A DNA stretch of 64,000 bases from a bacterium (GTDB lineage Bacteria; Krumholzibacteriota; Krumholzibacteriia; LZORAL124-64-63), in assembly GCA_003353795.1 (NCBI GenBank), contig PIVY01000002.1:12552-76551 (forward strand), given 5' to 3'. Below, one piece after another: positions 11,599-63,118 of the stretch (its first letter is position 1; the number at the start of each line of letters is the position of its first letter). Both the position numbers and the translations under genes were made by a program. The notes under the pieces are model-generated. The model was not told the origin of the DNA and did not search any database. It saw nothing but the letters and a program-made list of their open reading frames with translations.

Positions 11599-11845
11599 TG
11601 GCGAGCGTCCTTTCACCGAAACGGATCCTGCGGCATGCCCATCCCCCGACATCTCCCGAACGCCGCTGTCTTTCGATTCAGATCGGCGGATTCAATTCGG
11701 GCTTGAGGGCGGTTGCGAGGATTTTTGAACAAACTCCGTCCGCTGTTCACGAAGAGGGTCAAGGTCGATCTTCTTTGGCCGATATACGGAATGACAGATG
11801 CGACGGGAAGGATCCCGTCAGGGTCATCCGGAGAAGGAGCCAGTC

Positions 11846-18166: not shown

Positions 18167-18241
18167 CCCGCGGTCCTTGTCCCCATGGCCGAAAAGCGGG
18201 ATAATCATGGGTGCCACCTCCGCTCTGTCCGGGAGAGACCC

Positions 18242-24290: not shown

Positions 24291-24488
24291 GACGGACCTC
24301 CTCCCAGAGACATTCGGGCAATGAACACAGCATATCATGATTGGCGGCCCGCTTCAACGGTGTCCGTTGGTGGCTCACTTTCGATTCATGGGCGCGCGTG
24401 TTATCTTCCTGCGGCCCGTAGGGCGATTCTGTGGGCCCGAACTCGAACCCAAACTCGTTCGACCAGAACGAAAAAGGACCAATGACCC

Positions 24489-27302: not shown

Positions 27303-27580
27303 GGTCGGCTCGATCTCCGTTGAAGGTGTCGAATGATGCCCCGGGCGCCGGCGCCGATCCTGACGAACACGCCCTGGCAGGGAATCGCGCGCCACGCTAC
27401 CACAAGACTGCCGTTCTCGGCGAGTATCGTCGGCGCCGACGGCTGCGGCCGTACTTCCAAGATAAAGCTTGCGTACCGGTATTCGAGGAGATAATCGTGC
27501 GGACAAATAGATGGTGGTCGGTCCGTTCGGACCACGATCGGCCGCGCTTCCGGAACGGGCCACGACGAAAGGATCATAGC

Positions 27581-33327: not shown

Positions 33328-33723
33328 GATGCCTCCTCACAGGTGGTCGGGCGAGCCGGGCAGCTCGCCGACAGGTGCTGGCGAGCATACGGCGTTGATT
33401 CTAGCGCGGTTGCAGGGGATGTGTCCAGGGGGCGACAGGATCGGTCGTCGATCTACGAGGAATCCGCCAAGAATCCTAAACCTTGAACTCACGCTTGGTG
33501 AAGTTCTCGCTAATTGACCGATGATTATCGGCGTTCTATTGTGCCCTGGCTGGCGAATCTCCCGAGTATCGCAACGTGGGTCGGCAACGGCGAGATCTTA
33601 TTCAAGTTGTTTATTTGATACCAGTTATCGTTTCAGTGTCTCGACAAAGGAGGCCTCTCTGTCGCCTCTTCGATCAACTCGCCCGTTCCATTTTCCGGAT
33701 CGATCAATGAGGAGGATTCCGAC

Positions 33724-36700: not shown

Positions 36701-37026
36701 TCGTGGAAGCCGCCGGCGCGGTGGGCGTGGACGAGTTGCCGACGTCGCCGCTCCTGACGGTGACCAACTATCCGAATCCGTTCAACCCCAGCACGACCCT
36801 GGAGTTCTCGCTGCCGCGCAGCGCCGAGGTCGAGTTGAAGGTGCTGGATGCGCGCGGTCGGCTGGTCAGGACGTTGCTGGCCGGCGAGACCATGGTTGCC
36901 GGCGTGCATCGCGTGCGGTGGCAGGGCGGCAGCGACTCCGGTCGGGATGTGCCGTCGGGCGTGTACTTCTATCGGTGCGGTGCGGGCGGTGAGGTCGTGA
37001 CCGGAAGGATGGTGCTCTTGAAGTAG
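33724..37026 (+). CDS. 1100-aa secreted protein: alpha/alpha-toroid repeats, DUF11-like Ig domain, 7x FG-GAP/VCBS propeller, ASPIC/UnbV (CRTAC1-like) domain and a T9SS-type C-terminal domain
   Basis: GAGGAGG lies upstream. The signal peptide is ..LSASSALAA. Toroid repeats include GGWRYDANY, NGGSGYSN and QNGDGGWNGY. There are seven xAWADYDNDGDLDLY-type repeats. GARIVVDTGEQTLMRAVNANGAYLGQQ..HWPNGEVQ is ASPIC-like. The C-terminus is YPNPFNPSTTLEF...VLDARGRLVRTL...SGVYFYRCGAGGEVVTGRMVLLK. Confidence 0.9.
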   Translation: MNHRPTRLIIVLLTLFAIVLSASSALAALEWEKRAAIDHGLVWLATNQSINGDLGYWSYSNDGTLACTAAAALAFIEEDFLPGEDVVIDDINYGDVVGFALNYVFNHAVADSRFGVEYAVYERYAEDYDNDGIYDDGNDQAIYFDPGNPNRRVYTTGICVPMVFALGERLGINTVIGRGSAVVSGMTYAEAMQDLIDWFCFAQVEPNRGNYRGGWRYDANYPDSDNSTAQWGSLPLLYGDSWGLGAPDYVFAELELWVNYIQNANGGSGYSNPGNYVNVAKTGGLLLELAAIGAPVSDARVQAAIGFINGRWNTGPSGTWYGNLNHPYAMWAVFKGLEVYDLMDTITLDDLEILFGFGMSAAPGGFPIGTVDDFVISESGDWYSHYCDYLVGIQNGDGGWNGYLHWVGAMATGWYINILDGIRVPGIGNPAIRLVSEIPDACANPGDPVLHTAAFWYGTPGFPDPDTLPAENVEVLLTLNQHMTFVAASDGGTYDVGAHTVTWSIGELADGEVDTVTVDAVVAGTAPADAELITEVDVSATNVQEEDWGHDETEVLTCVSTCVWNVATDVVERGATHGVAWGDYDNDQDPDLLVTGSGLNHLYENVDGVLVMVEGWCEDEEPSYGAAWADYDNDGDLDVYVVNSLVANALYNNDAGVFTRVAAGDAEDAGDGYNAAWADFDGDGDLDLYICNRDGTNRLLENDGGMFTSVGGVTEYTGITRGCAFADYDNDDDPDLYISVYGDNMLFRNDGGVFVDVSAPPMNDGGEGKGVAWADYDNDGDLDLYLVNTHGANKLFRNDLDAGFVDVTDALLGDENNGRTCAWADYDNDGWMDLFFTNITSGRNILIENDEGVFTDANCGVLEDTATLESWGCAFADYDGDGDQDLAMAVRTLNGPSKVFRNDLTFGEPANWLQIDLRGVANNRFGVGARIVVDTGEQTLMRAVNANGAYLGQQPLTASFGLGAATHVDLTVHWPNGEVQTLANLPVNRRLEIVEAAGAVGVDELPTSPLLTVTNYPNPFNPSTTLEFSLPRSAEVELKVLDARGRLVRTLLAGETMVAGVHRVRWQGGSDSGRDVPSGVYFYRCGAGGEVVTGRMVLLK
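35602..36213 (+). repeat. Coding nucleotide repeats (FG-GAP blades)
   Basis: gcctgggccgactacgacaacgacggc(gatct) recurs identically at 35602, 36037 and 36187, inside the propeller region. It encodes AWADYDNDG. Confidence 0.9.
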
Positions 37027-37094: not shown

Positions 37095-39887
37095 TCATCG
37101 GGGGAGATGTCCGACCTCCAGTTCGTAGGTCAACCAGGTGAGGTTCGCCCCGGAATCTGCTGCGATGTGGCGGCGGCGGACCTCGCTGAGCGCGTCCCAC
37201 GCGCCGGTCAGCCCCGCGCCGCGGGTGCGTGCGAGGAACTCGCTCATGAACGCCGCCGCGGCGGCGTCCTCGATGGTCCAGCGGGCGGCGATCACGCCCG
37301 CAGCGCCGGCGTCCGTGAAGGCATCGGCGAGGGACGGTCCGGTCACGGTTCCGATCGCGTGGCCCGAGGCGCTCCGGCAACTGGAGAGCACCACCAGCTC
37401 GCAGCCGGAGAGGTCCCGGCCCAGGATGTCGGCAAAGGTGAGCCGGTCACCGACGGGATCGTGATCGGCCGGGTCGGCGGCGCAGGGCAGGTAGCTGCGG
37501 TAGGGCATCTCCGGGTCATGGGTGGCGTGGCCCGCGAGGTAGATCATGCGGGCCCGGGGCAGGTGCTCGAGGATGGCCTGCTTGCGGGCGGCGGCGTCCA
37601 TCAGCAGCACGGGGTCGGGCAATCGCGCGGCGGCCAGCTCGGCCTCGACCCGGACGTACGGCAGGGAGCGGAGCGATGGGCGCTCGCGCTTCAGGGACGA
37701 CGAAAGCTCCGGCACGCCGACCACGCAGCTCAGGCGGTTGTCGCTTGCCGCGGTGGGCCCGTCGTCCACGAGCCGCAGGTAGGCCGTCTGCCAGCGCGCC
37801 GCGAGGGGCTGATAGTCCGCCGGATCGCCGAGATTGCAGGCCTCGAGCGCCAGCGGATCCACTGCTGCGGTGGTGGCGATGAGCAGGCGGCCGCCCGTGT
37901 CGGCCCGCACCCAGTCCGGCATGAGAACCTCGGTGACCTCGGCGAGCTCTCGCGCCAGCTCGCGGGATACGGGCGCGTGCGGCGTGGCTACCCCCTCGGC
38001 GAGGCGTAGAGGTACCACTGCCAGCAGGGGCGCCACGGCGTTCGCCGGGATCGAGTCGCAGGCGACGCTGCCGTCGATGATCTGCCAGCGGAGCACCTGG
38101 TCGCCGAGCCGGGCATACACCAGCGCCCGGTCGTCGCCGGTTCGCGTCCAGTCGGCGAGCTCGTCGGCCTCGCTGCGGCCAAAGGCCAGCAGGCGCTCCA
38201 CCGTGCCGCCTGCGCCGGTGACGTGGTGGGTGGTCGCGTATCGTCGGAGTTGTCGCCACGCCAGTTCGACGGCGAGGCCGCCGCGCGGATCGTCGGCGAA
38301 GTGGCGGTGGAGCTGCTCACGGAATCCGTCGAGGCGGCTCAGCATGAGGTACACCTCGACCCGCTCGCCCCAGGCCGAGAGCCTGGTCAACAGGTCGGCG
38401 AGAGCCGCGTCCGCGTGCACTGCAGCGAGGCTGGCGTCGCCCTGCAGCTCGGCGATCTGCAGCGCGAGGCGGCTAGTCTCGAAGCTCGGCGGCCCCGCGT
38501 CGACGGACCTGGCCAGGTGAATCGCGGCGCTGTCCGCCCGTCCCGCCGCCACGTGGCCCGACGCGATGATGGTGTGGAGGCGGCGGCCGTGGTCGCCGAG
38601 GCCTTCCCGCCGGACGTAGGCGAGGCCCTCGTAGGCAAGGGCGATGGCGCGGCGGTGCTCCCCCCGCTCGACGAGCCAGGATGACCAGTCGGCCAGGACG
38701 GTGGCGTAGTCGTAGTTCCGCGGCAATGAGGTCGTCAACTCGGCGAGGCACGCGTAGACCGAGTCCGCCGCGGCATGCCGACCCACGTGTGTCAGGTAGC
38801 CAGCCTGGGTGCGGAGGGTGACCGCCAGGTAGCTGGCCTGCCGCGGTTCGGCATTCAGGAGCGTGACCTGCCCGAGCAGCAGTTCGGCCCGCGGCAGTCT
38901 GCGGCCGACCAGGTCCCAGCAGCCGAGGTCAGCGTGGAAGGCGAGCCTGGCCGCCAGGAAGCGGACCTCGATGTATCCGGCGTCGAGCCGGCGCGCCACG
39001 GCCACGGCCTCGTCGTAGTGCTCGGCCGCCAGGCTGAGCTCGCCGCGACCGCGATGGTAGGCGGCCAGGATGGTGTGGATCCGGCCGGCCTGGGCGGGGA
39101 GTCGGGCTGCGAGGGCTAGTTCGAGGGCCTCGTCGGCCAGCAGCATGGCGGTGTCCCGGCGGCCGGCAGCGAGACGGTCGTCGCAGAGCGTTCCGAGCAT
39201 ATGGCTGAGCTGGGGCGTGAGTCCCGCCTCGCGAGCGAGGCGGATTCCGCGGTAGAGGTGCGCCCGCTTGCGGTGGTCCTGGCCGGCGTCGGCGGACAGT
39301 TCGACCATCCGGCTCTCGATATAGGTCTCGGACCAGGGGCAGCCGGCGAGGGAATCGGATAGGGCCTGCATGGCTCGGTACTTCTCGTCGACCGGGGCGT
39401 CGGTGGTCCGGTGGACGCGCATCACCTCATTCTTGAGGCGGGTCACGCGCAGGCCTTCGCTCGTCGGGTGCTCGCGCAGGTAGCGGACCAATGTCTGTGG
39501 ACCCTGCGAGTGACCGCGGTCGGCGACGATGGCGGCCAGGCGTTCGATGGCCGGCATCGTCTGCGCCAGTGACGATTCGTAGGCTGCGAGAGAGGTGTCG
39601 TCGATCGAGTCGATGATCAGGCCGACGTGGTCGATGAGCTGATGCGCATCGAGCGCGTCGCAGACCGCGGCGAGCTCGTCGTCGGTGCCGGAGACCAGGG
39701 CGTCGGCGAGGCGGGGGTCGAGGTTGGGCGCATGGCGGATCAGGATCGCGCCGGGAGCTTCGGCACCGGTGAGGCGCATGAGGACGATCACGGCCACGAC
39801 GACCACGATCGACGCGGCGGCGATCGACCATTTCGAAAGGGAACCGTGCCGGTGGGTGAAGGCCATCATCACGGGGTCACGGTTCAC
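37095..39887 (-). CDS. Membrane-anchored TPR-like / CHAT-domain (caspase-fold) protease
   Basis: GTG 39887 overlaps the anti-sigma stop (GTGA). There is one N-terminal TM (SIAAASIVVVVAVIVLMRL) with basic residues before it. About 590 aa of helical repeats follow. The C-terminal CHAT domain carries the His/Cys dyad contexts MIYLAGHATH and LVVLSSCRSASG. Confidence 0.85.
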   Translation of the reverse strand: MNRDPVMMAFTHRHGSLSKWSIAAASIVVVVAVIVLMRLTGAEAPGAILIRHAPNLDPRLADALVSGTDDELAAVCDALDAHQLIDHVGLIIDSIDDTSLAAYESSLAQTMPAIERLAAIVADRGHSQGPQTLVRYLREHPTSEGLRVTRLKNEVMRVHRTTDAPVDEKYRAMQALSDSLAGCPWSETYIESRMVELSADAGQDHRKRAHLYRGIRLAREAGLTPQLSHMLGTLCDDRLAAGRRDTAMLLADEALELALAARLPAQAGRIHTILAAYHRGRGELSLAAEHYDEAVAVARRLDAGYIEVRFLAARLAFHADLGCWDLVGRRLPRAELLLGQVTLLNAEPRQASYLAVTLRTQAGYLTHVGRHAAADSVYACLAELTTSLPRNYDYATVLADWSSWLVERGEHRRAIALAYEGLAYVRREGLGDHGRRLHTIIASGHVAAGRADSAAIHLARSVDAGPPSFETSRLALQIAELQGDASLAAVHADAALADLLTRLSAWGERVEVYLMLSRLDGFREQLHRHFADDPRGGLAVELAWRQLRRYATTHHVTGAGGTVERLLAFGRSEADELADWTRTGDDRALVYARLGDQVLRWQIIDGSVACDSIPANAVAPLLAVVPLRLAEGVATPHAPVSRELARELAEVTEVLMPDWVRADTGGRLLIATTAAVDPLALEACNLGDPADYQPLAARWQTAYLRLVDDGPTAASDNRLSCVVGVPELSSSLKRERPSLRSLPYVRVEAELAAARLPDPVLLMDAAARKQAILEHLPRARMIYLAGHATHDPEMPYRSYLPCAADPADHDPVGDRLTFADILGRDLSGCELVVLSSCRSASGHAIGTVTGPSLADAFTDAGAAGVIAARWTIEDAAAAAFMSEFLARTRGAGLTGAWDALSEVRRRHIAADSGANLTWLTYELEVGHLPR

Positions 39888-51024: not shown

Positions 51025-51875
51025 CCGTTGGCGGCGCTTCCCGCGTATACGGCCTCATCGGCGACCCCGTGGCGCACAGCCTGTCCCCGCGCCTGATGAA
51101 CGACGCCTTCGCGCGGCTGGGCATCGACGCGGTGTACGTGGCCTGGCGCCTGGCGTCCGACTACGTGGGCTCGGCCGTGGCCGGCCTCGTGACCCTGGGC
51201 GTGGCCGGCGTCAACGTGACCTACCCGCACAAGGCCGCGGTGCTGCCTCACGTGGCGTCCCGCTCCAACGCGGTCGCAACGCTGGGCGCGGCCAATGTAC
51301 TGGCCCTCGACGCCGACGGTTTCCGGGCCGAGAACACCGACGCCGGGGGGACCGCACTGGCCTTGACCGAGTTGCTCGACTGGCCGGTGACCCACCGTCG
51401 CGTGGTGATCCTCGGCGCCGGCGGCGCGGGCCGGGCGGCGGCGCTGGGCCTGCTGGTCGCGGGAGCCGAGCGCGTCGACTTCCTGGTGCGCGACCGTTCG
51501 CGTGCCGAAGCCGGACTTGTCGGCTTGCGCGCGGCTCATGAAGCGGTCGCCGTCCACGTTCTCGACAGCCGCGACGCAGCCGGGTGCCTGGACGCTGCCC
51601 ACCTCGTGGTGCAGGCCACCCCGGTGGGTCTCGACGATCCCGGCGCTGCTTCCCTAATCGACCCGGCACAGGCGCCGAACGCCGCGGGATTCGAACTGGT
51701 CTACGGCGAACGCCCCACCGCGTTCGCCGCCGCCTGGCGCGGCGCCGGTCGACCGTGTCTCGACGGACGCGATCTGCTGGCGGCCCAGGCCCACCTGGCT
51801 CTTCATGTCTGGCTGAACGACGCGCCCGACCTGGCCGACATGCGCCGGGTCATTGCGCCCGAGGAGGTCGCGTGA
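51021..51875 (+). CDS. aroE: Shikimate dehydrogenase
   Basis: GTG 51021 overlaps the aroA stop (GTGA). Family stretches are YGLIGDPVAHSLSPRLMN, GVNVTYPHK, NTDAGG and ILGAGGAGRAAA. Confidence 0.9.
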   Translation: MTVGGASRVYGLIGDPVAHSLSPRLMNDAFARLGIDAVYVAWRLASDYVGSAVAGLVTLGVAGVNVTYPHKAAVLPHVASRSNAVATLGAANVLALDADGFRAENTDAGGTALALTELLDWPVTHRRVVILGAGGAGRAAALGLLVAGAERVDFLVRDRSRAEAGLVGLRAAHEAVAVHVLDSRDAAGCLDAAHLVVQATPVGLDDPGAASLIDPAQAPNAAGFELVYGERPTAFAAAWRGAGRPCLDGRDLLAAQAHLALHVWLNDAPDLADMRRVIAPEEVA

Positions 51876-53545
51876 CCACGACGAAACGCAACGTGGTGCT
51901 CACCGGATTCATGGGCACCGGCAAGACCGCCGTCGGCCGCGTTCTGGCCGACCTGCTCGGCCGCCCCTTCTGCGATCTGGATGCGGTGATCGAGGAGGCG
52001 GCCGGCTGTCCGGTGGCCGAGATCTTCGCGGCCGAAGGCGAGGACGGTTTCCGACGCCGCGAGCGGGAGGCCGCCGCCGCGGTTGGTGCCCGGCGCGGCC
52101 TGGTGGTCGCCACTGGCGGCGGCACCCTCATCGACCCGGCCAATCGCGAGGCACTCTCCGCCGGCGGCGACCTGGTCCTCCTGACCACTGCGGCGCCCGA
52201 ACTGGCCGACCGCCTCGGCGACGGCGCCGGGCAACGCCCGCTGCTGGCTGGCCACGATGACCTGCGCGCCCGCATCGCTGAACTCCTCGCCGAGCGCGCG
52301 TCCGTCTATGCCGGCTGCGACCACGAATTCGACACGACAGCGCTCGATGCCGACGAGGCCGCCGCCCTGCTGGCTGCGCGCCTGGCCACGCCGTTGACGG
52401 AGATCGACATCCCCGTTCCCGGCGCCGCCGGTCTGCCCGTGCTCGCTGCCCGCGAGCTCACCGGATCGCGCGTGGTCACCGGCCGCGGCACGGTCTGTCG
52501 GCTCGGCGCCGAACTGCGCGACCGCGGTGTCACCGGCCGCGTGGTGCTGGTCATGCCCGAGGTGGTGCGCGATCACTACCTTCCGCGCCTGGTCGCCTCT
52601 CTCGACGCCGCCGAACTGTCGTGGGGCCTGCTGGGAATTCGCGACGGCGACCAGGAGAAGACCTTCGCCCAGGTGGAGGATCTGGTGGACGCCCTGGCCG
52701 GCCTCAGCGCCGATCGTGGCACCTGCGTGGTGGCCGTGGGCGGCGGCGTGACCGGCGACCTGGTGGGCTTCAGCGCCGCGGTCTACATGCGCGGCGCGGC
52801 CCTGGCCATGGTGCCGACCACCCTGCTGGCCCAGGTCGACGCCCACATCGGCGGCAAGACCGGCGTCAACGGTCGCCGCGTCAAGAACCTGGCCGGCTGT
52901 TTCCATCCGCCCATTCTGGTGGTGGCCGACCCCTGCATGCTGGCCACCCTGCCGGACCGTGAGCTGGCCGGCGGCATGGCCGAGGTGGTCAAGTCGGCGC
53001 TCATCGGCGACCCCGCGCTCTTCGACCAGCTCGAGGCGGCGCTTGTCGATCCGGCCGAGAATCGCGACGGCGATCCGCGCCGCGACCCAGAACTGCTCGA
53101 GACCTGTGTGGCGGCTTGCGCCGCCGTGAAGGGCGGCGTGGTCAGTCGCGATCCCTGGGAACTGGGGGAGCGGCGCTTGTTGAACCTGGGCCACACTCTC
53201 GGCCATGCCCTCGAAGCCCAGAGCGCCTACGGTCTGAGCCATGGCGAGGCCGTGTCCATCGGCACCGTGGCGGCCCTGCAAGTGGCCGTGGCGCGCGGCG
53301 CCGCCGAGGCCGATCTCCTCGACCGTACCCGCCGCCTGCTGCAGGCCTGCGGGCTGCCCACCACACCGCCCGAATACGATGCCGCCGACCTCCTCTCGCG
53401 ATTGCATCTGGACAAGAAGCGGCGTGACGGTCGACAGTTCTTCGTGCTGCCACTCGCCGCGGGCGACGTGGTGGTCGTGGACGACGTCGACGATGACGAG
53501 GCCCTCGCGGCCCTGGCCAGGGAGCAAGCGTGCGCATCCTCGTGA
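51872..53545 (+). CDS. aroKB: Bifunctional shikimate kinase / 3-dehydroquinate synthase fusion
   Basis: GTG 51872 overlaps the aroE stop (GTGA). The N-terminal kinase has the GFMGTGKT Walker A and DGFRRRE. The C-terminal DHQ synthase has [32 protein letters not shown] and [12 protein letters not shown]. Confidence 0.9.
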
Positions 53546-53991
53546 TTCACGGACCGAACCTGAACCTCTTGGGCATCCGCGAGCCGGAAGTCTACGGCAA
53601 GACGACCCTGCAGGAGATCAACCGGAGCCTGCGGGCGCGCGGCGAGGAGATCGGCGCGGCCATCTCCGATTTCCAGAGCAACCACGAGGGCGACATCGTC
53701 GACCGCATCCAGGCGGCGGCCCTCGATATTCCTCGGGCCGACGGCATCATCCTCAACCCGGCGGGCTACACCCACACCAGCGTGGCCATCCGCGATGCGC
53801 TCACGGCGGTGAGCCTGCCCACCTGGGAGATCCACATCTCCGATCCGTCGAAACGCGAGAAGTTCCGCCACGTGTCGCTGGTGCGCGACATCTGCGTGGG
53901 CTGCACCGCCGGCCGCGGCTCGGGCGGCTACATCGAGGCACTGGACGGGCTCGTGGCACACTTGAATTCCGGCGGGGAGGCGTCGTCATGA
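53530..53991 (+). CDS. aroQ: Type II 3-dehydroquinate dehydratase
   Basis: The GTG start gives [30 protein letters not shown] and [11 protein letters not shown] are present. It overlaps aroKB by 16 nt. Confidence 0.93.
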
Positions 53992-55073
53992 GTAGCGTCT
54001 TCGGCCGCCTGTTTCGCGTGAGCACTTTCGGCGAGAGCCATGGCGCCGGCCTCGGAGCGGTGGTGGACGGCTGCCCGCCCCGGCTGCCCCTCTCGGTGAC
54101 CGACATCCAGGCCGCTCTCGATCGTCGGCGTCCCGGCCAGAGCGCGCTGACCACGCCGCGCCAGGAGCCTGATCAGGTGGAGATCCTCTCCGGCGTTCAG
54201 GATGGCGCCACCCTGGGAACGCCCATCGGCCTCCTGATCCGCAACACCGACCAGAAGCCGGCCGACTACAAGGACACCGACGAGGTCCCGCGGCCGAGTC
54301 ACGCCGACTACACCTACCAGATGAAGTATGGTATGCGCGCCCGCAGCGGCGGCGGTCGGGCCAGCGCTCGCGAGACGGCAGCCCGGGTCGCAGCCGGCGC
54401 CGTGGCCTCGCAGCTCCTGCGCTTGCGCTGGGGCGTGGAGGTGGTGGCCTGGGTGGACGCGGTGGGCGACGAGGATCCCGCCCTCGTGGATCCCGCGACC
54501 GTCACCCAGGATGCCGTCGATACCAATGCCGTGCGTTGCCCCGACATCGACGCGGCCGATCGCTTCACCGATCTGATCACCAGCGCCCGCGACGCCGGCG
54601 ATTCGGTGGGCGGCGTGGTGGCCTGCGTGGTGCGCGGCTGTCCTGCCGGCTGGGGCGAGCCGGTGTTCGAGAAGGCCGAGGCACGCCTGGCCGGCGCCAT
54701 GCTGTCGCTGCCGGCGAGCAAGGGATTCGAGATCGGCAGCGGATTCGCCGGCACGCGGTTGCGCGGCAGTCAGCACAACGATGCGTTCGTGGCGCGGGCC
54801 GATGGTTCTCTCGGCACGGCTACCAATCGCAGCGGCGGTGTGCAGGGCGGCATCACCAACGGGGAGCCGGTGGTCATCCGGGTGGCGTTCAAGCCGACGT
54901 CGACCATCGCCATGCCGCAGCCGACGGTGGACTACGAGGGCAAGGCGACGGTGCTGGAGGCGAAAGGGCGCCATGATCCCTGCGTGTTGCCGCGGGCGGT
55001 GCCCATCGTGGAGGCGATGGCGGCGCTGGTGATGGCGGATCTGGGGATGTTGCAGGCGGGGCGGGACGACTAG
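53988..55073 (+). CDS. aroC: Chorismate synthase
   Basis: ATG 53988 overlaps the aroQ stop (ATGA). Family stretches are [34 protein letters not shown] and GRHDPCV. Confidence 0.95.
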
Positions 55074-55476
55074 GGCCAGCCAGTGGGAAGCCGGGCGGCG
55101 GTCATCCGACCTGCCCCGCGATCTTGTAGAGTACAAAGGTCGAGCACCCCGTCCTGCCGCGCAGTGCCTCGAGCCGCACCTCATCGAGCTGAATCCGGCA
55201 CCGGCGCACGGACTGCAGTTTCCGCCAATTGGGGGCGTCATTGTTGCGGAGCCAGGCCGTTCGGGCTCCGATTCCAGCCTGTGAATCGAAGGCACACTGG
55301 GCAGGGCGCGCACTCGTCGGCAAGCCTGGTCGGCGTCATCCGGTTCATTATGTAACTCATATAACAACAAAGTTTTGCGGTTGCCGTGGGACGTGTCGTT
55401 CACGATGGCACGACCGCTGCTTTGCCGGCTGGTGAAGCAACGGTTCCTCAACCATCGACTCTGTGGAGGCAACACC

Positions 55477-56160
55477 ATGCAATCCTTCGTCGCAGAATTC
55501 TTCCGCTCCGGCGGCCCCCTCATGTGGGTCATCCTGGCGGTCCTCGCGGCGGCCGCCGCAGTCATCGTCGAGCGACTGCACTTCTACCTGGTGGTCTGCC
55601 GCGACGACGCCGACCACCTCGCTACCGGCGCCATCCGCCGGCTCAACGGCGGCGACTTCAAGGGTGCTCTCGCCCAGGTCAGCGGCCGCCGCAGCCCGGC
55701 GGCCGCGATCCTCGGCCAGGCCGTCTCGCGCTTCAATGCCGGCCACTCGCTCACCGAGGTCCGCCACGGTGTCGAGGAAGTGGCCATCCGCGCGGTGCCG
55801 CTCTACGGACGGCGCGTGGGCTACCTTGCCATGCTCGCCAACATCGCCACGTTGACCGGTCTGCTGGGCACCATCTTCGGGTTGCAGAAGAGCTTCAGTT
55901 CGCTGGCCATGGTGGAGGCGGCGGAGAAGGCGTCGGTGCTGGCCGGCGGCATCAGTCAGGCCATGAACACCACCGCCTTCGGCCTCATCGTGGCCATCCC
56001 CTGCCTGGTGGCCTACACCCGGCTGTCCAGCCTGCAGTCGCGCAAGACCGAGGAGTGCGACGCCGCGGCCGTGAAGCTGCTCAACTACCTGGAGGCCCGT
56101 CAGGACGCCGACGATGTCGAGACCGAGACCGTGCGCTCCCTGCAGCGCGCGGCGGTGTGA
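55477..56160 (+). CDS. exbB: MotA/TolQ/ExbB proton-channel protein
   Basis: Trimmed to ATG 55477 (GTGGAGG upstream). Contains LANIATLTGLLGTIFGL and GGISQAMNTTAFGLIVAIP. Confidence 0.9.
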   Translation: MQSFVAEFFRSGGPLMWVILAVLAAAAAVIVERLHFYLVVCRDDADHLATGAIRRLNGGDFKGALAQVSGRRSPAAAILGQAVSRFNAGHSLTEVRHGVEEVAIRAVPLYGRRVGYLAMLANIATLTGLLGTIFGLQKSFSSLAMVEAAEKASVLAGGISQAMNTTAFGLIVAIPCLVAYTRLSSLQSRKTEECDAAAVKLLNYLEARQDADDVETETVRSLQRAAV

Positions 56161-56165
56161 TCACC

Positions 56166-56672
56166 ATGAGCGCGCGCCAGGCATCGATCCTCTCGCGGCG
56201 GCCGACCGCACTCGGTGATTCCGTCGAGATCGACGTGACCCCCATCATGAACATGTTCATCATCCTGATCCCCTTCCTGGTGAGCATGGCGGTGTTCACC
56301 CACCTCGCGACGCACACGTTCAGCCTGCCCGCCGAGGATGGTCCGAGCCAGGCCCGCACCGCCGACGAGGTGCCGCTGACGGTGGCCGTCACTTCCAGTG
56401 CCGTGGCCGTGGTCTGGGGTGACGTGGAGGTGGCGCGCTTCGTCGTGGCCGCCGACGGCTCTTTCGACACGGTCGCCCTCGAGACCGTGCTGGCTGCCGA
56501 GCGCACGCGCCGCCCCGAAGTGGACCAGGTGGTGGTCGCCGTGGACGACGGCGTGATCTGCGCCGATGTGGTGCGCTGCCTTGATCATTGCAAGGCCGCC
56601 GGATACCGGGACGTGGGGCTGGCTGCCGGCGCCAATCTCGGCTCTTCGCAGGACCCGGAGGTGACGCCGTGA
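56166..56672 (+). CDS. exbD: Biopolymer transport protein ExbD/TolR (copy 1)
   Basis: ATG 56166. IDVTPIMNMFIILIPFLVSM is the TM, followed by the periplasmic ExbD fold. It lies in the frame of track ORF 55386-56672. Confidence 0.85.
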   Translation: MSARQASILSRRPTALGDSVEIDVTPIMNMFIILIPFLVSMAVFTHLATHTFSLPAEDGPSQARTADEVPLTVAVTSSAVAVVWGDVEVARFVVAADGSFDTVALETVLAAERTRRPEVDQVVVAVDDGVICADVVRCLDHCKAAGYRDVGLAAGANLGSSQDPEVTP

Positions 56673-57133
56673 TCGCCGCCCGCAACGCCCTGCCGCGTTC
56701 CCGGCCGAAGACCAACGGTATTGCGCGGCCTCAGCTCACCTCGCTGGTCGACATGATGGTCATCCTGCTGGTGTTCCTGCTGAAGAGCTTCTCGGTGGAG
56801 GGCCAGCTCGTCACGCCGTCGCCCGATCTGCACCTGCCCGAGTCCGCCGCCACGACGCCGGTGGAGTCGGCGTTGAGCCTGGAAGTGACCACCGGCGGCA
56901 TCGTGCTCGACGGTCGCCACGTGGCCGACCTGCCCACGGCGAGCACCGACAGCCTGCTCATCGCGCCGCTCGCCAGCGCGCTGCGCGACCTCGGGCCCGG
57001 TGGCGAAGGCCAGGCGCTCTCCATCCAGTGCGACCGTCGCGTGGACTTCGCCGTGCTCAAGCGGGTGCTCTTCACCTGCGACCGCACCGGACACGACGAC
57101 CTGTCGCTGCTGGTGATCCGGGAGGATGCGTGA
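56669..57133 (+). CDS. exbD: Biopolymer transport protein ExbD/TolR (copy 2)
   Basis: GTG 56669 overlaps the copy 1 stop (GTGA). Contains QLTSLVDMMVILLVFLL. Confidence 0.85.
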   Translation: MIAARNALPRSRPKTNGIARPQLTSLVDMMVILLVFLLKSFSVEGQLVTPSPDLHLPESAATTPVESALSLEVTTGGIVLDGRHVADLPTASTDSLLIAPLASALRDLGPGGEGQALSIQCDRRVDFAVLKRVLFTCDRTGHDDLSLLVIREDA

Positions 57134-57936
57134 TGTCGGCCCATGCGAGCAAGCTCGCCGTCTACGCCCAGCCGGCCGCCCGCCACGGCCGCGGCGGATT
57201 CCTCTCCGGCAGCCTCGGCACGAGCCTGCTGATCTTCGGGGGTCTCGGTCTGTTGCTACTGGCCGTGGACCTGCCCGAGGTGGTCCGCAGTCCCCAGCGG
57301 GTCGCCCATCGCATCGCTTTCCACGCGCCGACGCCGGCACCGGCGCCGGTTCCCGACATCAAGCCGGTAGTGGCCGAGATCGTTCCGGATACCCGGCTCG
57401 CGCAACCCATCGACCGACCGGCAACCGTGCCGGTGATCGAAACGCCCGTGGTGGCTGCACCGGATCCCGAGCCGGTGCCCACCGCGCCGGCGCCTCGTCG
57501 CGTCTATGGCGTGCGCAAGGTCATGGCCCGCGGCCTCGGCAGCGGCAGCGGCGCCGGGTCGGTGGGCCTGGTGACCAGGCGCGGCAACGTGCTCGACGGC
57601 GTGGCCGACACTCTCACCGCCACCGCCGGCGACCTGCGCGGCGATCTGGCCGCCCTCAGCACCGTGGAGCGCGCGCCCGAGCCCGTGCACCAGGTGAAGC
57701 CGCGCTACAGCGAGGCGCTCATCGCCGCCCGCGCCGGCGGCGTGGTCACCGCCAAGCTACTCGTCGACGCCGAAGGATCGGTGGCCGACGTCGTGGTGCT
57801 CGAGCACATCGGCCACGATTCGGCCCAGCTCGCCGCCGACGCCTTCCGGCAATTCCGCTTTCACCCCGCACTGCGTCACGGTGAGGCCGTGGCGGTGTGG
57901 ATCGTCTATCGCATGCGTTTCGAGTTCCAGAAGTGA
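57133..57936 (+). CDS. tonB: Energy transducer TonB
   Basis: ATG 57133 overlaps the exbD stop (TGATG). Order is an N-terminal TM, a Pro-rich spacer (PTPAPAPVPDIKP..PDPEPVPTAPAP), then the TonB-C domain KPRYSEALIAARAGGVVTAKLLVDAEGSVADVVVLE...FRFHPALRHGEAV. Confidence 0.85.
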   Translation: MSAHASKLAVYAQPAARHGRGGFLSGSLGTSLLIFGGLGLLLLAVDLPEVVRSPQRVAHRIAFHAPTPAPAPVPDIKPVVAEIVPDTRLAQPIDRPATVPVIETPVVAAPDPEPVPTAPAPRRVYGVRKVMARGLGSGSGAGSVGLVTRRGNVLDGVADTLTATAGDLRGDLAALSTVERAPEPVHQVKPRYSEALIAARAGGVVTAKLLVDAEGSVADVVVLEHIGHDSAQLAADAFRQFRFHPALRHGEAVAVWIVYRMRFEFQK

Positions 57937-57944
57937 GCCAGAAC

Positions 57945-60599
57945 ATGATGCTTCGCACCCTGATCCCCGTCGTGCTCCTGCTGGCCCTGCCTGCCATGGC
58001 GACCGCGCAGGACGATGCTCCCGAGATCCTCGAACCCGACGTGGCTCCCACGCTGAGCCACTTCGCCGAGGCCGTCTATCCACCGGTCGCCCTGCGCGAG
58101 GGACGCGAAGGCGCCGTGTTGCTGGAGATGCTGGTCCTGGAGACCGGCCGGGTCGACTCGGTGATCGTGGTCGACGGCCTCGCGCCTGACCTCGACGCCG
58201 CCGCCGCGGCCGCCGTCGCAGAGTTCGTCTTCACGCCGGCCGAGGCCGGCGGCGAGCCCGTACCCGTCTGGGTGCAGTTCGAGTACGTCTTCTCCATCAG
58301 CGAGCAGACCCGATTCATCGCCGAGTACGTCAACGTCCGTGGCCGGCTGCGCGAGATGGGCACTCGGGTGCCGCTGGCAGGCGCCATGGTGGTTGCCGCG
58401 TTTCCGGATTCGTTGGCGCGCCCGGCGCTGGACGTTCCCTGGGACGCGTACCTCGACCGCATCGGACACTTCGCCGGCCAGTACCTGGAGGAGGGCCGGC
58501 TCGTCGCCTTCACTGACGATGACGGGCGCTTCTCGTTCAAATCGCTGCCGCCCGGCGAGGTCGTGTTCTCCTTTCCCAACGCCGGCTACGAGGCTTTCCA
58601 GGAGACCGTCCTGATCGCGGCGGAAGAACTCGTGGAGGTGGATTCCTGGGCCCGCCGCAGCGCCTACAACGAGTACGAGGTCGTGGTCTACGGCCGCGGC
58701 GAGGAAACCGAAGTCTCGCGGCAGACCCTGTCGGTGACCGAGGTCGAGCGCATCGCCGGCTTCGGCGGTGACGTCATCAAGAGCATCCAGGCCCTGCCCG
58801 GCGTGGCTCGGCCCACCATGGAAAATCCCGCGGCCATCGTGATCCGCGGCAGCGGCAACTACGACACCCGCTTCTTCCTGGACGGCATCGACATCCCGTT
58901 GCTCTTCCACTACGGCGGCCTCAAGTCCACCTACAACTCGCTGTCACTGGGTAGCGTCGACATGTATCCCGGCGGCTTCGGCACCTCGTTCGGCAACGCC
59001 ATCGGCGGTGTGGTGGAGCTCAAGGGTCGGCCCGGTCGCAAGGATCGCTGGCGCACCGTGCTCGACGCCAGCATGCTCGACGCCAGCTTCCATACCGAGG
59101 GGCCCCTGGGCGACAAATTCTCCCTCACCCTCAGCGCCCGCCGCAGCTTCATCGGCGAAGTCATGGACGCCGCACTCTCGGGCAACGACGATTTCAACAT
59201 GGCCATGGCGCCCTACTACTGGGACGCGATCGGCCGGCTCGACTACGACCCGGCACCGGGCCACCACCTCTTCGCCACGGCCTTCGCGGTGAAGGACAAG
59301 ATGTCCATGGTGGTGGCCGACGCGCAGGAGGGCAGCGCCTCGGTCAACGCGGCCACCGACGAGGTCGCCATGGACATTCGCTTCAGCCGCTACATCCTCG
59401 GCTACGACGCGCGGCTGGGCGAGCGTGTCCAGAATACATTCCGCGCCGCCTACGGCCGTCAAAGCGAATCCGGCCACGTGTTCGGCCACTTCGACTGGGA
59501 GGGCGGGGGACCCTTGTGGCAGCTGCGCGACGAGCTGTCGGTGTCGTGGAATCCCTGGCTGGCCACCGTGGTGGGCGGCGAGTGGATCCGCACGCCGTAC
59601 ACCTATTCGGTGGCCGCCGAGGGCTGGCGTCGCAGCACCGTGGAGCAGACGTTCGGGCTGCAGGGCGTCTGGGCCAATCTCGAGCTGCGCCCCACCAAGA
59701 ATCTTCTGCTCATCCCGGGCGTCCGCTACGACTACTACGACCACCTCGACAAGGACGAGGTGTCCTACCGGTCGAGCGCCCGCTGGCGCTATCATCCCGA
59801 CCGCTCCTTCACCGCGTCCTACGGAACCTACAACCAGATGCCCGCTCCCTCCGGCCAGTCCACCGATCCGGTCTTCGGCAATCCCGACCTGCCGCCCACG
59901 CTGGCCCGCCACGCGACCCTGGGCCACGAGTGGCGCATCAACGACCGCCTCTCGCTCAAGGTGGAGGGCTACCACAACACCCAGGAACTGATCCCGTCGG
60001 AGACCGACAGCCTTGGCCTGAACTTCGCGCCCGACACCGACGCCCGCATGTACGGCTTCGAGTTCATGCTCCGCCACGAACCCAGCGAGCGTTTCTTCGG
60101 CTGGATCAGCTACAGCCTCGGTCGTAGCGAGCGCCAGTACTCGCGCCGACCCAGCACCTCGGTGACCGAGTGGGATCCGGCGGACTGGATCCTCTTCGAG
60201 ATGGACCAGACTCACCACGTCGAGGCCGTGGGCTCGTGGAACCTGGGACGGAACTGGAGCTTCGGCACCCGCATCCAGTACGTCAGCGGCGTGCCCGTGA
60301 CCCCGCTGCTCAGCTATTCCTCGGGTCTCTTCGAGTTCGACGCCGACTCCGGCGAGTACATCGAGGTGGGCGGCGAGTACCTGTCCGACCGTATGGAGCC
60401 GTACTTCCGCACCGACCTGCGTCTCGACAAGAAGTGGATCAACAAGCGCACCATCTGGACGGCGTATCTCGATCTGCAGAACGCGAACTACTTCGTCCAC
60501 AACAGCCCCGAGGGCTTCACCTACAACTACGATTACTCGGAGCGCGAGGAGTACGGCTGGATCTTCATGCCGTCTCTCGGGCTGCGCGTGGAATTCTAG
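57945..60599 (+). CDS. TonB-dependent receptor with an N-terminal TonB-C-like domain and a carboxypeptidase-regulatory-like domain
   Basis: ATG 57945, with signal peptide ..LLLALPAMATAQ. Residues ~35-115, AVYPPVALREGREGAVLLEMLVLETGRVDSVIVVDG..LDAAAAAAVAEFVFTPAEAGGEPV, are TonB_C-like. RGRLREMGTRVPLAGAMV is CarboxypepD_reg-like. The TonB-box-like element is YEVVVYG. The plug is DVIKSIQALPGV...IVIRGS. A long barrel ends in the OMP signature LGLRVEF. Confidence 0.88.
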   Translation: MMLRTLIPVVLLLALPAMATAQDDAPEILEPDVAPTLSHFAEAVYPPVALREGREGAVLLEMLVLETGRVDSVIVVDGLAPDLDAAAAAAVAEFVFTPAEAGGEPVPVWVQFEYVFSISEQTRFIAEYVNVRGRLREMGTRVPLAGAMVVAAFPDSLARPALDVPWDAYLDRIGHFAGQYLEEGRLVAFTDDDGRFSFKSLPPGEVVFSFPNAGYEAFQETVLIAAEELVEVDSWARRSAYNEYEVVVYGRGEETEVSRQTLSVTEVERIAGFGGDVIKSIQALPGVARPTMENPAAIVIRGSGNYDTRFFLDGIDIPLLFHYGGLKSTYNSLSLGSVDMYPGGFGTSFGNAIGGVVELKGRPGRKDRWRTVLDASMLDASFHTEGPLGDKFSLTLSARRSFIGEVMDAALSGNDDFNMAMAPYYWDAIGRLDYDPAPGHHLFATAFAVKDKMSMVVADAQEGSASVNAATDEVAMDIRFSRYILGYDARLGERVQNTFRAAYGRQSESGHVFGHFDWEGGGPLWQLRDELSVSWNPWLATVVGGEWIRTPYTYSVAAEGWRRSTVEQTFGLQGVWANLELRPTKNLLLIPGVRYDYYDHLDKDEVSYRSSARWRYHPDRSFTASYGTYNQMPAPSGQSTDPVFGNPDLPPTLARHATLGHEWRINDRLSLKVEGYHNTQELIPSETDSLGLNFAPDTDARMYGFEFMLRHEPSERFFGWISYSLGRSERQYSRRPSTSVTEWDPADWILFEMDQTHHVEAVGSWNLGRNWSFGTRIQYVSGVPVTPLLSYSSGLFEFDADSGEYIEVGGEYLSDRMEPYFRTDLRLDKKWINKRTIWTAYLDLQNANYFVHNSPEGFTYNYDYSEREEYGWIFMPSLGLRVEF

Positions 60600-60611
60600 G
60601 AGGCGCGAGCC

Positions 60612-61769
60612 ATGAAGACCCTGCTGACCGCGATCCTGCTCGTGTCCGCATTGCTGACCGGCTGCGGCGACGGCTTCCCCGGCCAGGAGATGAGCCTGGG
60701 CACCGAGGACAAGACCCGGCCCTACGCCGTCACCGTCGAGCCGCCCGAGGTGGCGCCCGGCGACACCGTGACCGTGCGCCTGCGGTACCAGGCGGCGCGA
60801 CCCAGCGACGTCGTGTCCACGTGGCGCGTGGCCCTCGACTACGCCACCGGTCCCTACGAGGCCGACGAGATCGAGCGTAGGCTGGTGCCGCTGCCCGACG
60901 TGGCGCCGCCGGTGGTCGACCAGTTCGGATTCATGACCCAGGTCTTCCAGTACGCGGTGCCCGATTCGGTGCCGCTGTGGTCGACCGCCATTGCCGACGT
61001 GATCACGGACCCGTCCATGCTCTACATCCTCGACCTCCTGGAGCCCGACGGCGTCGGCGAGCCGCCGCACAAGACCGAGGTGGACGCCTGGTTGCGCGGC
61101 CTCACTCCCGACGACCTCGCCGCCATGAACCCGCTCGAACGCACGGCCACCCAGCGCCTGGCCGACCTCTTCAGCTGCTCCATCCGGTTCCGCGTCACCC
61201 TTGACGCCAACACGTCGGTGGACGTGACCCGCAACCTCACCGTGCGGTACAGCAGTCGGCTGGGCAGCGACAACGTCAACGTCAACGCCGAGATTACGCG
61301 GTTCGAGATCGGCGTGATCCCGGCGCCCGACGTGGACATCTCCGATCTCGAGGAGTGGGAGGACCGGATCGTGTGGTACGCCTTTGATGGTACGTCGGAG
61401 AACGGCCTGCCCGAGGCGCGGGTGCCCAACGAGCCGGGTAATACCTACCTCGTAAGCGTGCGACAGGATCCGCAGCTATACACGTCGCCGTTCGAACTGG
61501 ACCAGACGCTCGAGGAGCAAGGTGACTACCGCTGGTACTTCCTGCGCCTCGACGCGCCCGAATCCGGCCACGATCTCTACGTGGACGAGGAGGGTGAGCC
61601 CACCGAGATGTTCATGCTGGACGAGGATGTCCGGATGCTGCTGCCGGGAGGCGACTCGAACTTCCGGCTGCTGTCGGTGGTGTACGACAAGCGGCCCGAG
61701 TGGATCCAGTACGCGGCCGTGCCCGGGGCTACCGTGACGGTGGGGGAGGTGGTGTTCGAGGCGCCCTGA
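60612..61769 (+). CDS. Hypothetical lipoprotein downstream of the TonB-dependent receptor
   Basis: TAGGAGG lies upstream. The lipobox is SALLTGC. There is no recognisable domain. It starts 12 nt after the receptor stop. Confidence 0.65.
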   Translation: MKTLLTAILLVSALLTGCGDGFPGQEMSLGTEDKTRPYAVTVEPPEVAPGDTVTVRLRYQAARPSDVVSTWRVALDYATGPYEADEIERRLVPLPDVAPPVVDQFGFMTQVFQYAVPDSVPLWSTAIADVITDPSMLYILDLLEPDGVGEPPHKTEVDAWLRGLTPDDLAAMNPLERTATQRLADLFSCSIRFRVTLDANTSVDVTRNLTVRYSSRLGSDNVNVNAEITRFEIGVIPAPDVDISDLEEWEDRIVWYAFDGTSENGLPEARVPNEPGNTYLVSVRQDPQLYTSPFELDQTLEEQGDYRWYFLRLDAPESGHDLYVDEEGEPTEMFMLDEDVRMLLPGGDSNFRLLSVVYDKRPEWIQYAAVPGATVTVGEVVFEAP

Positions 61770-61796
61770 TTCCGGACGCCCCGATGATGTTCGGAA

Positions 61797-61824
61797 AGAG
61801 CCCCCGCCGGTCGGCGGGGGCTCT
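61797..61824. terminator. Perfect 12-bp hairpin between convergent genes
   Basis: AGAGCCCCCGCC / GGTC / GGCGGGGGCTCT. TTTCC follows on the minus strand and TCGTG on the plus strand. Confidence 0.65.
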
Positions 61825-61846
61825 TCGTGCAATCGTCGGTCGCGGA

Positions 61847-63118
61847 TCAGTGGGCGATCTCGTAGCAGACGACCGCTGGCAACGCGGGCTCGCCGTCCTC
61901 GCCGCCGTAGGTGCTGCCGTCGCCGAACTGGGCGGCCAGGGATTCGAAGTAGCTCTCGATCACCAGGATGCGATCCGGTCCGGCCAGGACGATGCCCACC
62001 TCGCTGGCCCGGTGCGGCGCCTTCAGCGCCACCTGCTCGGCAAACTCGCCGCTCGGCTCGAACACGTCGTACACGGCCATCACGCCGGGCGCGTCGGGTC
62101 GCGCGCCACGGCCGCTGAGGACCCAGAGGCGTCCGTCGACAGCCACCTGGATGCCGCGGGCCAGGCTCATGACGGCGGCCTCCTGACGCTCCACCTCGAT
62201 GCGGACCTCCATGGGCATCCCGGTCATCGCCGTCTCGATCATGCCGTAGAGCGCCCGATACTCGCGATCGGTCCGTTGCAGCGGCTCGTAGTCCCGTTCG
62301 ATGACCCGGCTCACCGAGCCGTCCGGCGCGTGGACCGTGATTGCGTAGCGGTCGCGGTCGTGGACCGTGTAGACCGAGCCGTCGGCGCCGGCGGCGAAGC
62401 AGAACCAGAACGGGGGCAGGTGCTCGCGCTCATCGAAGACGAAGTCGTTGAAATCGTACTGGGAAAGGGCGCTCACGAAATGGGCCTTCAGCGTGCTGTC
62501 GGAGTCGTAGCTCTCGAGAAAGTTGTCGCGAAGACTGATACCCGGGCCGCCGTCGCTCTGGTGGGTTCCCGAGAGCACGACCCGATCGCCGGCGCCCTGG
62601 CAGGCGGTGAGACTGTGGGCGCCGCCGTCGGTGCCGCCGACCCTCAGACGCCCGGCCGGCAAGCCCTCGCCGTCGACCATCACCACCATGCCGGGAAACT
62701 CCTGGATCAGCCCCACGCGACCGTCGTCGAGCAACAGCATGTCGCGCGGCCGCCGTACCTCGCCCGGTCCCTCGCCCTCGCGGAACAGGGTGCGCACCAG
62801 CTCGCCGTCGGTGTCGTAGACGGAGACCTGGCAGAGCTGAGAGTCGAGGACGTAGGCATGGCCGCTAGCGTCGGCGGCGACGCGGGGGATGAGCCCGAAG
62901 AAAGCATCGTCGTCCTCGCCGCCCACGCGCCAGACTTCACGCAACTCCACGGTGCGCAGGCCGTCGCGGGATTCGGCGCCGTTGCGGACGTGGGGGACGC
63001 CGTCGATGATCGTCGTCTCGGCGGCCCTGGTAGGCTCGACGAGGCCGATGATTACGAGGTGGATGAGCAGCAGTCCGGCGAGCCATGCCGTCAACTGGGC
63101 GGAGACGCGGGGATTCAT
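61847..63118 (-). CDS. Hypothetical N-terminally anchored/secreted protein, probably a 6-bladed beta-propeller (NHL-like)
   Basis: ATG 63118 follows AGAGAGGA. The N-terminus is hydrophobic (LTAWLAGLLLIHLVIIGLV). Strand-rich periodic motifs recur (..VYDTDGELV.., ..VYTVHDRDRYAITVHAPDGSV.., ..VYDVFEPSGEF..). Confidence 0.55.
   Translation of the reverse strand: MNPRVSAQLTAWLAGLLLIHLVIIGLVEPTRAAETTIIDGVPHVRNGAESRDGLRTVELREVWRVGGEDDDAFFGLIPRVAADASGHAYVLDSQLCQVSVYDTDGELVRTLFREGEGPGEVRRPRDMLLLDDGRVGLIQEFPGMVVMVDGEGLPAGRLRVGGTDGGAHSLTACQGAGDRVVLSGTHQSDGGPGISLRDNFLESYDSDSTLKAHFVSALSQYDFNDFVFDEREHLPPFWFCFAAGADGSVYTVHDRDRYAITVHAPDGSVSRVIERDYEPLQRTDREYRALYGMIETAMTGMPMEVRIEVERQEAAVMSLARGIQVAVDGRLWVLSGRGARPDAPGVMAVYDVFEPSGEFAEQVALKAPHRASEVGIVLAGPDRILVIESYFESLAAQFGDGSTYGGEDGEPALPAVVCYEIAH

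Follow-up and report, generated by a model that had tools for sequence, protein, structure and literature searches.

A TonB_C domain at the mature N-terminus of a TonB-dependent receptor encoded behind its own exbB-exbD-exbD-tonB genes

TonB-dependent transporters can carry additional periplasmic domains ahead of the TonB box, and the published N-terminal architectures comprise STN, CarboxypepD_reg and AMIN (PMC6434023; bioRxiv 10.64898/2026.07.30.741596; the review PMC11658791). CarboxypepD_reg extensions are common in the Fibrobacteres-Chlorobi-Bacteroidetes (FCB) group and in Myxococcota and have been suggested to assist in assembling the transporter-TonB complex (PMC6434023, PMC10350073); the immunoglobulin (Ig)-like extension of Bacteroides transporters has likewise been proposed to aid formation of the transporter-TonB-ExbBD complex (PMC10350073). 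The AMIN extension class went uninvestigated until a 2026 study, and the AMIN domain is reported to bind peptidoglycan (bioRxiv 10.64898/2026.07.30.741596). Here we analyze a six-gene operon in a 64,000-nucleotide (nt) stretch of contig PIVY01000002.1, from a bacterium of the Krumholzibacteriota lineage LZORAL124-64-63. We refer to this whole stretch as the window, and all coordinates are positions within it. The operon encodes a complete set of exbB, two exbD genes and tonB, followed directly by a TonB-dependent receptor that carries a TonB_C domain at its own mature N-terminus.

A search of the full-text literature found no paper that describes or tests TonB_C at the N-terminus of a receptor. 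A survey of 34,893 transporters distinguished five N-terminal architectures, none with TonB_C (PMC6434023), the 2024 transporter review does not describe a TonB_C extension in the passages searched (PMC11658791), and the 2026 AMIN-transporter study names only STN and AMIN, with no occurrence of TonB_C (bioRxiv 10.64898/2026.07.30.741596). The architecture has already been detected by automated annotation, in the form of Pfam hits, of the name “TonB family protein” given to receptor homologues in several databases, and of the NCBIfam model for MxcH. That name is an annotation trap: the receptor is not itself a TonB protein, since its signal peptide is cleavable and it lacks both a membrane anchor and a proline-rich spacer.

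The operon comprises six intact genes on the forward strand (55477-61769), in the order exbB-exbD-exbD-tonB-receptor-lipoprotein. The first, exbB (55477-56160; 227 amino acids (aa), an intact open reading frame), encodes the proton-channel subunit of the Ton motor and matches Pfam MotA_ExbB with an E-value of 1e-24. After a gap of 5 nt comes exbD1 (56166-56672; 168 aa; Pfam ExbD, E 1.4e-13), the end of which overlaps by 4 nt (GTGA) the GTG start of exbD2 (56669-57133; 154 aa; Pfam ExbD, E 3.7e-10); exbD2 in turn overlaps the ATG start of tonB by a single nucleotide (TGATG). The tonB gene (57133-57936; 267 aa) encodes an N-terminal membrane anchor, a Pro/Ala/Val-rich spacer and a TonB_C domain at aa 185-267 (nt 57685-57933; Pfam TonB_C, E 2.6e-11, 44.3 bits), and stops with TGA at 57934-57936. 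Eight nucleotides farther on, the receptor gene (57945-60599; 884 aa) opens with its own signal peptide, and after another 12 nt the lipoprotein gene (60612-61769; 385 aa) completes the operon. ExbB, the two ExbD paralogues and TonB form a private Ton system of the receptor operon.

We delineated the receptor with Pfam domains and with an AlphaFold2 model built on a 66-sequence alignment (mean predicted local distance difference test score, pLDDT, of 85). The signal peptide, as read from the sequence, covers aa 1-21 (57945-58007; MMLRTLIPVVLLLALPAMA/TAQ, with an AMA/TAQ cleavage motif; model pLDDT <50). The TonB_C domain (aa 35-118; 58047-58298) starts about 14 residues past the cleavage site, and the model renders aa 30-125 as beta-beta-alpha-beta with pLDDT >90. 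It is followed by an Ig-like CarboxypepD_reg-type domain (aa 128-237; 58326-58655), assigned from sub-threshold Pfam matches (PF13620 and PF13715 at 23.2 and 21.9 bits, with cut-offs of about 32 (32.3)) and from a predicted beta-sandwich at aa 129-236 with pLDDT of about 90. CarboxypepD_reg hits are precomputed for many receptor homologues, and the Ig-like domain is kept in the receptor-family alignment. Around aa 150-180 this domain contains a conserved helical insertion of ~30 residues (L.VPW..YL.RIG.F.GQ), which is probably the reason for its sub-threshold CarboxypepD_reg score, and which is retained in close orthologues that have the Ig domain but no TonB_C.

The TonB box, YEVVVYG, lies at aa 244-250 (58674-58694), directly N-terminal to the plug, and reads (Y/F)E(I/V/M)VVYG throughout 139 TonB_C-bearing members of the family. 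In the AlphaFold2 model the segment that contains it (aa 243-254) is disordered, with pLDDT of about 35. The Plug domain (aa 254-372; 58704-59060) scores 25.1 bits with PF07715 against a cut-off of 23.9, over aa 254-356, and is a strongly conserved block in two family alignments. The rest of the protein is the beta-barrel (aa 373-884; 59061-60596; Pfam TonB_dep_Rec_b-barrel, PF00593, E 2.6e-19), whose modelled strand pattern fits 22 strands and which closes on ...RVEF, that is, on an aromatic last residue. In Foldseek comparisons the closest solved folds are BtuB, FptA and FepA (E about 1e-23), with a target-normalised template-modelling (TM) score of 0.75-0.80 for BtuB; a phmmer search of the full receptor against PDB sequences gave no match at E 0.01 or better. 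Based on its plug, 22-strand barrel and TonB box, we take the protein to be a TonB-dependent transporter, with a barrel that is small, BtuB-sized, in the model.

Profile searches identify the N-terminal domain as TonB_C. Pfam TonB_C (PF03544) matches aa 43-117 with an E-value of 1.5e-14 and 54.6 bits (cut-off 24.6), and TIGR01352 scores 37.1 bits on the receptor N-terminus, against a cut-off of 27.1. A profile of the domain from 26 loci found 17 matches in the PDB, all of them C-terminal domains of TonB, TonB2 or HasB and the top one being 2k9k (E 1.6e-11), and it aligns end to end with the C-terminal domains of the TonBs from the same operons (hhalign, 99.7%). The receptor copy outscores that of the operon's TonB with Pfam TonB_C (54.6 versus 44.3 bits). 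In fact, the receptor's TonB_C looks more canonical than TonB's own, because the YP motif is kept there and replaced by Y(S/T) in the operon TonBs (the window and loci L001-L046). The receptor-borne domain is thus apparently a functional TonB_C fold.

An earlier sequence-only reading of the window had described much of this anatomy, and it was accurate in doing so. Its gene order and spacing, the placement of the receptor directly behind a complete exbB-exbD-exbD-tonB set, the clean tonB stop at 57934-36 with a new signal peptide after it, and the TonB_C domain at about aa 35-115 of the receptor, with the peptides quoted for it, all agree with the data above. The domain order that it gave (TonB_C, CarboxypepD_reg-type domain, a TonB-box-like YEVVVYG, plug, barrel) holds, the YEVVVYG motif is conserved across the family, and the gene after the receptor does encode a lipoprotein without a recognisable domain. 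As functions of the receptor's TonB_C that reading had put forward docking to TonB or to peptidoglycan, or competition for TonB boxes; any of these may apply, and the one direct hint, the disordered box in the AlphaFold2 model, speaks against self-binding.

Several described systems share individual features with this operon. Transducer-type receptors (FecA, FpvA and FoxA) also have an additional globular domain in the periplasm at the same position, ahead of the TonB box, but theirs is STN (PF07660) and comes with genes for anti-sigma and extracytoplasmic function (ECF) sigma factors, whereas the window receptor carries TonB_C (PF03544) and its apparent regulation is of the sigma-54 type. Receptors of the Oar/SusC class have large barrels, in contrast to the small, BtuB-like barrel found here; moreover, in the window receptor TonB_C precedes the CarboxypepD_reg-type extension, and the partner lipoprotein is unrelated to SusD. 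Cyanobacterial AMIN-domain transporters (CctA) are comparable as a lineage-restricted class of N-terminal extension, but their extension has another fold and is confined to cyanobacteria, while the TonB_C class spans FCB-like phyla and Myxococcota. SusCD and BtuB-BtuG also have a lipoprotein gene directly after the receptor gene, and HasB-HasR has a TonB in the same operon as the receptor that it presumably serves; the window operon differs from all three in also holding the whole motor, exbB-exbD-exbD.

Two further comparisons concern the TonB_C domain itself. In Bacteroides thetaiotaomicron, TonB7 and TonB11 combine CarbopepD_reg_2 and TonB_C in one small protein (PMC10350073). These proteins place the same two periplasmic domains in one polypeptide and are a precedent for the docking role proposed below, but the domain order is reversed (Ig, then TonB_C), the proteins have a length of about 250 aa and neither plug nor barrel, and they are classed among TonB homologues, not receptors. 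In the myxochelin receptor MxcH (NCBIfam NF038079), model positions 1-90 align to TonB_C domains; it would follow that receptors of the MxcH type, too, start with TonB_C, and that an N-terminal TonB_C occurs in at least two receptor families. The window receptor does not belong to MxcH, scoring 58.8 bits against a cut-off of 925 and over model positions 1-90 only, and neither do six Myxococcota relatives, with 69-91 bits against 925 in the TonB_C part only. The window receptor belongs to a different transporter family, and there are no siderophore genes nearby.

To place the receptor among its relatives, we searched 5.8 billion proteins and retrieved 217 receptor homologues. They belong to Krumholzibacteria, Eisenbacteria and Fibrobacterota, and a single one is labelled Elusimicrobia by its source. 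Even at 43% identity, homologues still show PF03544 alongside hits to CarboxypepD_reg, Plug and the barrel. An exact-match query for the window receptor in public contigs returned no record, and its genomic context was read from homologues. A scan of GTDB with one genome per species found at least 577 receptor relatives, the best 79 loci of which were mapped with hidden Markov models built from the window proteins; these loci add Raymondbacteria, Chitinispirillaceae, Myxococcota, Polyangia and Bradymonadia. The full order exbB-exbD-exbD-tonB-receptor (TonB_C, Ig, plug, barrel)-lipoprotein is present at 24 loci including the window, and 11 further loci have the ton genes and the receptor, with the lipoprotein undetected or the contig ending there. 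We also searched the N-terminal extension alone (phmmer) against 1.84 billion representative proteins, which gave 44 matches at E 1e-30 or better. Among the top 150, about 65 have a single match that covers both domains near the N-terminus; roughly half of them have lengths of 850-1010 aa, and the shorter ones look like fragments. The same search frequently returned proteins with three to eight tandem TonB_C domains (P0212, P0218, P0219, P0230, P0246 and others), for instance one of 1017 aa with eight matched stretches and one of 2103 aa with six, which are another unusual use of TonB_C.

The two TonB_C domains of the window are 34% identical over 73 aa. A neighbor-joining tree groups the receptor-borne copies from every phylum (Krumholzibacteria, Eisenbacteria, Fibrobacterota, Raymondbacteria and Myxococcota) in one clade, apart from the operon TonB domains. 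The latter form a second clade, with a branching order broadly parallel to that of the first. We conclude that the fusion of TonB_C to the receptor is old and was passed down along with the operon. The window copy is an ordinary member of a widespread, uncharacterised family.

The lipoprotein encoded after the receptor has a lipobox, LLTGC, with Cys18 as its cysteine, and the lipobox is followed immediately by a conserved stretch, CGDGFP.EEM.LG.EDK.RPYAV. It has no match in Pfam or NCBIfam, and none of the 61 homologous lipoprotein clusters, all of about 385 aa, has a Pfam domain or an informative name. Its predicted fold resembles only generic Ig-like domains, and we detected no relation in sequence or fold to SusD (tetratricopeptide repeat-like) or BtuG (a propeller). 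In the loci surveyed its gene lies directly 3' of the receptor gene whether or not the receptor has TonB_C, such that these receptors are always accompanied by a conserved lipoprotein family unknown to Pfam and NCBIfam. In Myxococcota and Bradymonadia, too, a lipoprotein of 310-390 aa comes directly after the receptor; those of Myxococcota match no Pfam family, and hhalign shows the Myxococcota/Bradymonadia proteins to be homologues of the window lipoprotein's family (98.3%; E 2e-14). Because the lipoprotein is homologous and adjacent to the receptor out to Myxococcota, we regard the receptor-lipoprotein pair as the conserved core of the system; it is an ancient module common to Krumholzibacteria, Eisenbacteria, Fibrobacterota, Raymondbacteria and Myxococcota. 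The sequence-only reading had suggested that the lipoprotein may be the receptor's surface-exposed substrate-capture partner: the partnership is strengthened by the conserved downstream gene and the homology to the Myxococcota proteins, and surface exposure and substrate capture would be putative properties of the lipoprotein.

Upstream of the operon we identified a candidate sigma-54 type -24/-12 promoter motif, TGGCACGACCGCTGCT (55406-55421, forward strand), 55 nt before the ATG of exbB. The motif has GG at -24, GC at -12 and the correct spacing, and the 64-kb window contains no second match to TGGCAC-N5-YTGCW, the number expected being 0.12. No sigma-70-like site was found in 55000-62000. 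When the motif was relaxed to at least 9 of 11 consensus bases, and the region upstream of the receptor was taken for receptors without ton genes, sigma-54-like motifs preceded the operon at 19 of 74 related loci, compared with 25 of 1480 random segments (p = 4e-15). Overall, regulation of the operon appears to be of the sigma-54 type. Response regulators of the sigma-54 activator type (Sigma54_activat) adjoin the module in loci L001, L002, L005-L009, L028, L035, L038 and L060.

In several Krumholzibacteria- and Eisenbacteria-like relatives, the module adjoins a conserved cluster. Its genes encode an Omp85-family protein, a protein with a weak match to DUF4390, and an NtrYX-like pair of a HAMP histidine kinase with a response regulator of the sigma-54 activator type; in some cases a small OMP_b-brl beta-barrel protein is encoded as well (L001:1-4833 and L002:2225-7949; also L005-L009, L013, L028, L035, L038 and L060). 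This cluster is absent from the window.

We propose that the six genes make up an import module powered by its own Ton system, with the receptor-borne TonB_C as a periplasmic docking element, a reading to which we give a probability of roughly 55%. In this model a sigma-54 type promoter would drive the six-gene operon, and the module would import its substrate with TonB energy. As is usual for TonB-dependent transporters, the pulling on the receptor's TonB box would be done by the operon's anchored TonB. The receptor-borne TonB_C could not itself transduce energy, because it has neither a membrane anchor nor a spacer, and this leads us to propose that it acts in docking: it may hold the receptor to its own Ton complex, through the periplasmic parts of TonB and/or ExbD, with the strand-pairing surface typical of the TonB_C fold. 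The lipoprotein would be the partner outer-membrane lipoprotein of the transporter. In line with docking to a dedicated Ton complex, the receptor-borne TonB_C is genomically associated with ton genes. At loci where the upstream sequence extends over 3 kb or more, ton genes directly precede 35 of 59 domain-bearing receptors and none of 8 domain-less ones (Fisher p = 0.0016, for loci that are not phylogenetically independent). Two Fibrobacterota assemblies each contain one ton-linked and one unlinked copy, all with the domain (L040/L057; L061/L031), so some unlinked loci are second copies in genomes that have the operon too. On a short contig (L034), tonB directly precedes a receptor without TonB_C.

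Several observations weigh against this model. Some orthologues, at 55-62% identity, lack TonB_C and start at the Ig domain, and others lack both N-terminal domains and start just before the TonB box. In a tree of plug and barrel these shorter forms are interspersed among the full-length receptors, which suggests that TonB_C was lost several times independently. Because the orthologues without TonB_C keep the TonB box and the lipoprotein, the domain is dispensable for the core transport function. The association with ton genes is incomplete, as 24 of the 59 domain-bearing loci have no adjacent ton genes, and its counts suffer from the shared ancestry of the loci. Finally, no sigma-54 activator is encoded near the operon in the window, and the window provides no clue to the substrate, with shikimate-pathway-like genes and a weakly propeller-like convergent gene as the operon's neighbors.

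The best-surviving alternative to docking is that the receptor gates itself: its TonB_C would bind its own TonB box, ~130 residues downstream, and mask it until substrate or lipoprotein binds, such that the real TonB would engage loaded receptors only. The YP motif and the complete TonB_C fold are kept, as such binding would have it, and the same polypeptide carries a canonical TonB box. This box is tighter in the 139 domain-bearing sequences and more variable in receptors without the domain, but the comparison is confounded by phylogeny and the difference may reflect phylogeny alone. The AlphaFold2 model speaks against the idea, as it leaves the box segment disordered and shows no strand pairing while the N-terminal domains reach pLDDT of ~90 or higher, and so does the existence of orthologues without TonB_C. 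We consider self-gating doubtful, both for the masking and for the selective engagement of loaded receptors.

Peptidoglycan binding has been reported for the C-terminal domain of E. coli TonB. The receptor's TonB_C, spaced from the membrane by the Ig-like domain, might accordingly bind the cell wall and position or immobilise the receptor. The AlphaFold2 model places TonB_C at the far periplasmic end of the extension, beyond the Ig-like spacer, in keeping with such an anchor. A precedent is the AMIN domain of cyanobacterial transporters, a wall-binding N-terminal extension for which this role has been proposed (bioRxiv 10.64898/2026.07.30.741596). Wall binding leaves the association with adjacent ton genes unexplained, however, and we regard it as unlikely.

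A signalling role, in which TonB_C stands in for STN and reports receptor occupancy to an inner-membrane sensor, strikes us as highly improbable. The domain does occupy the position of STN in transducer-type receptors, the NtrY-like histidine kinase that adjoins the module in several relatives, in the cluster with the sigma-54 response regulator, would be a candidate sensor, and the operon is preceded by a sigma-54 promoter motif. But receptors without TonB_C also follow directly on these kinase-regulator genes (L002, L009 and L028), and no such kinase or regulator is encoded near the window operon. The receptor has no STN domain (PF07660), and neither anti-sigma nor ECF sigma factors turned up in a Pfam scan of the operon and the convergent gene, with the stretch before exbB read as translations only.

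That the arrangement is an artefact or accident, either an assembly or frameshift fusion of tonB and receptor or a recent duplication of the 3' end of the neighboring tonB, has next to no chance of being right. All that speaks for it is that two stretches coding for TonB_C are neighbors, with 8 nt between the genes. The genes are separated by a clean stop, a fresh start codon and a signal peptide, and about 35 independent loci of several phyla show this two-gene boundary as well, which excludes a frameshift or fusion and bears out the argument of the sequence-only reading against one. The recent duplication for which that reading had proposed a check is ruled out by the low identity of the two domains and their separate clades.

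More broadly, and only tentatively, TonB_C may represent an undescribed class of N-terminal extension with which receptors carry their own TonB-box-binding module, gating of the own box being one possible mode of action. If true, this would be a new means of controlling the pairing of receptor and TonB. Two general questions in outer-membrane transport are how a small number of TonBs select from a large set of receptors and what exposes or conceals the TonB box, and here a widespread natural construct equips a receptor with the domain that normally binds its TonB box. Close orthologues without TonB_C, or without both N-terminal domains, are natural controls, and the role of the receptor's TonB_C is therefore directly testable.

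Downstream of the operon, a GC-rich hairpin at 61796-61825 (a perfect 13-bp stem with a 4-nt loop, AAGAGCCCCCGCC-GGTC-GGCGGGGGCTCTT) lies between the operon end and a convergent gene and is likely a terminator; a simple terminator scan missed it because it has no T-run. The convergent gene (61847-63118, reverse strand; 423 aa) has weak beta-propeller/NHL-type hits only (DUF5128, E 0.002; ScyF-like, E 2.6e-6, far below its cut-off), and no counterpart was noted in the two relatives with full gene lists (L001 and L002). Directly upstream of the operon, 51584-55073 on the forward strand holds putative shikimate-pathway genes, read from translations alone, for a shikimate kinase/3-dehydroquinate synthase fusion, a type II dehydroquinase and a chorismate synthase.

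Three other annotated genes, all on the reverse strand, have no evident link to the operon: they encode a 930-aa CHAT-domain protein (37098-39887), a chemoreceptor with a Cache_3-Cache_2 sensor (9454-11691) and an arginine deiminase (26046-27587). The window also encodes four large secreted-type proteins, at 2-2101, 18167-19906 and 33619-37023 on the forward strand and at 22425-24353 on the reverse strand, which contain FG-GAP, CarboxypepD_reg, DUF11 and other domains and end in a FlgD_ig or Por_Secre_tail-type domain. All four share the tail ...G(K/R)hhLh(K/R), where h is a hydrophobic residue, which suggests a type 9-like C-terminal sorting signal.

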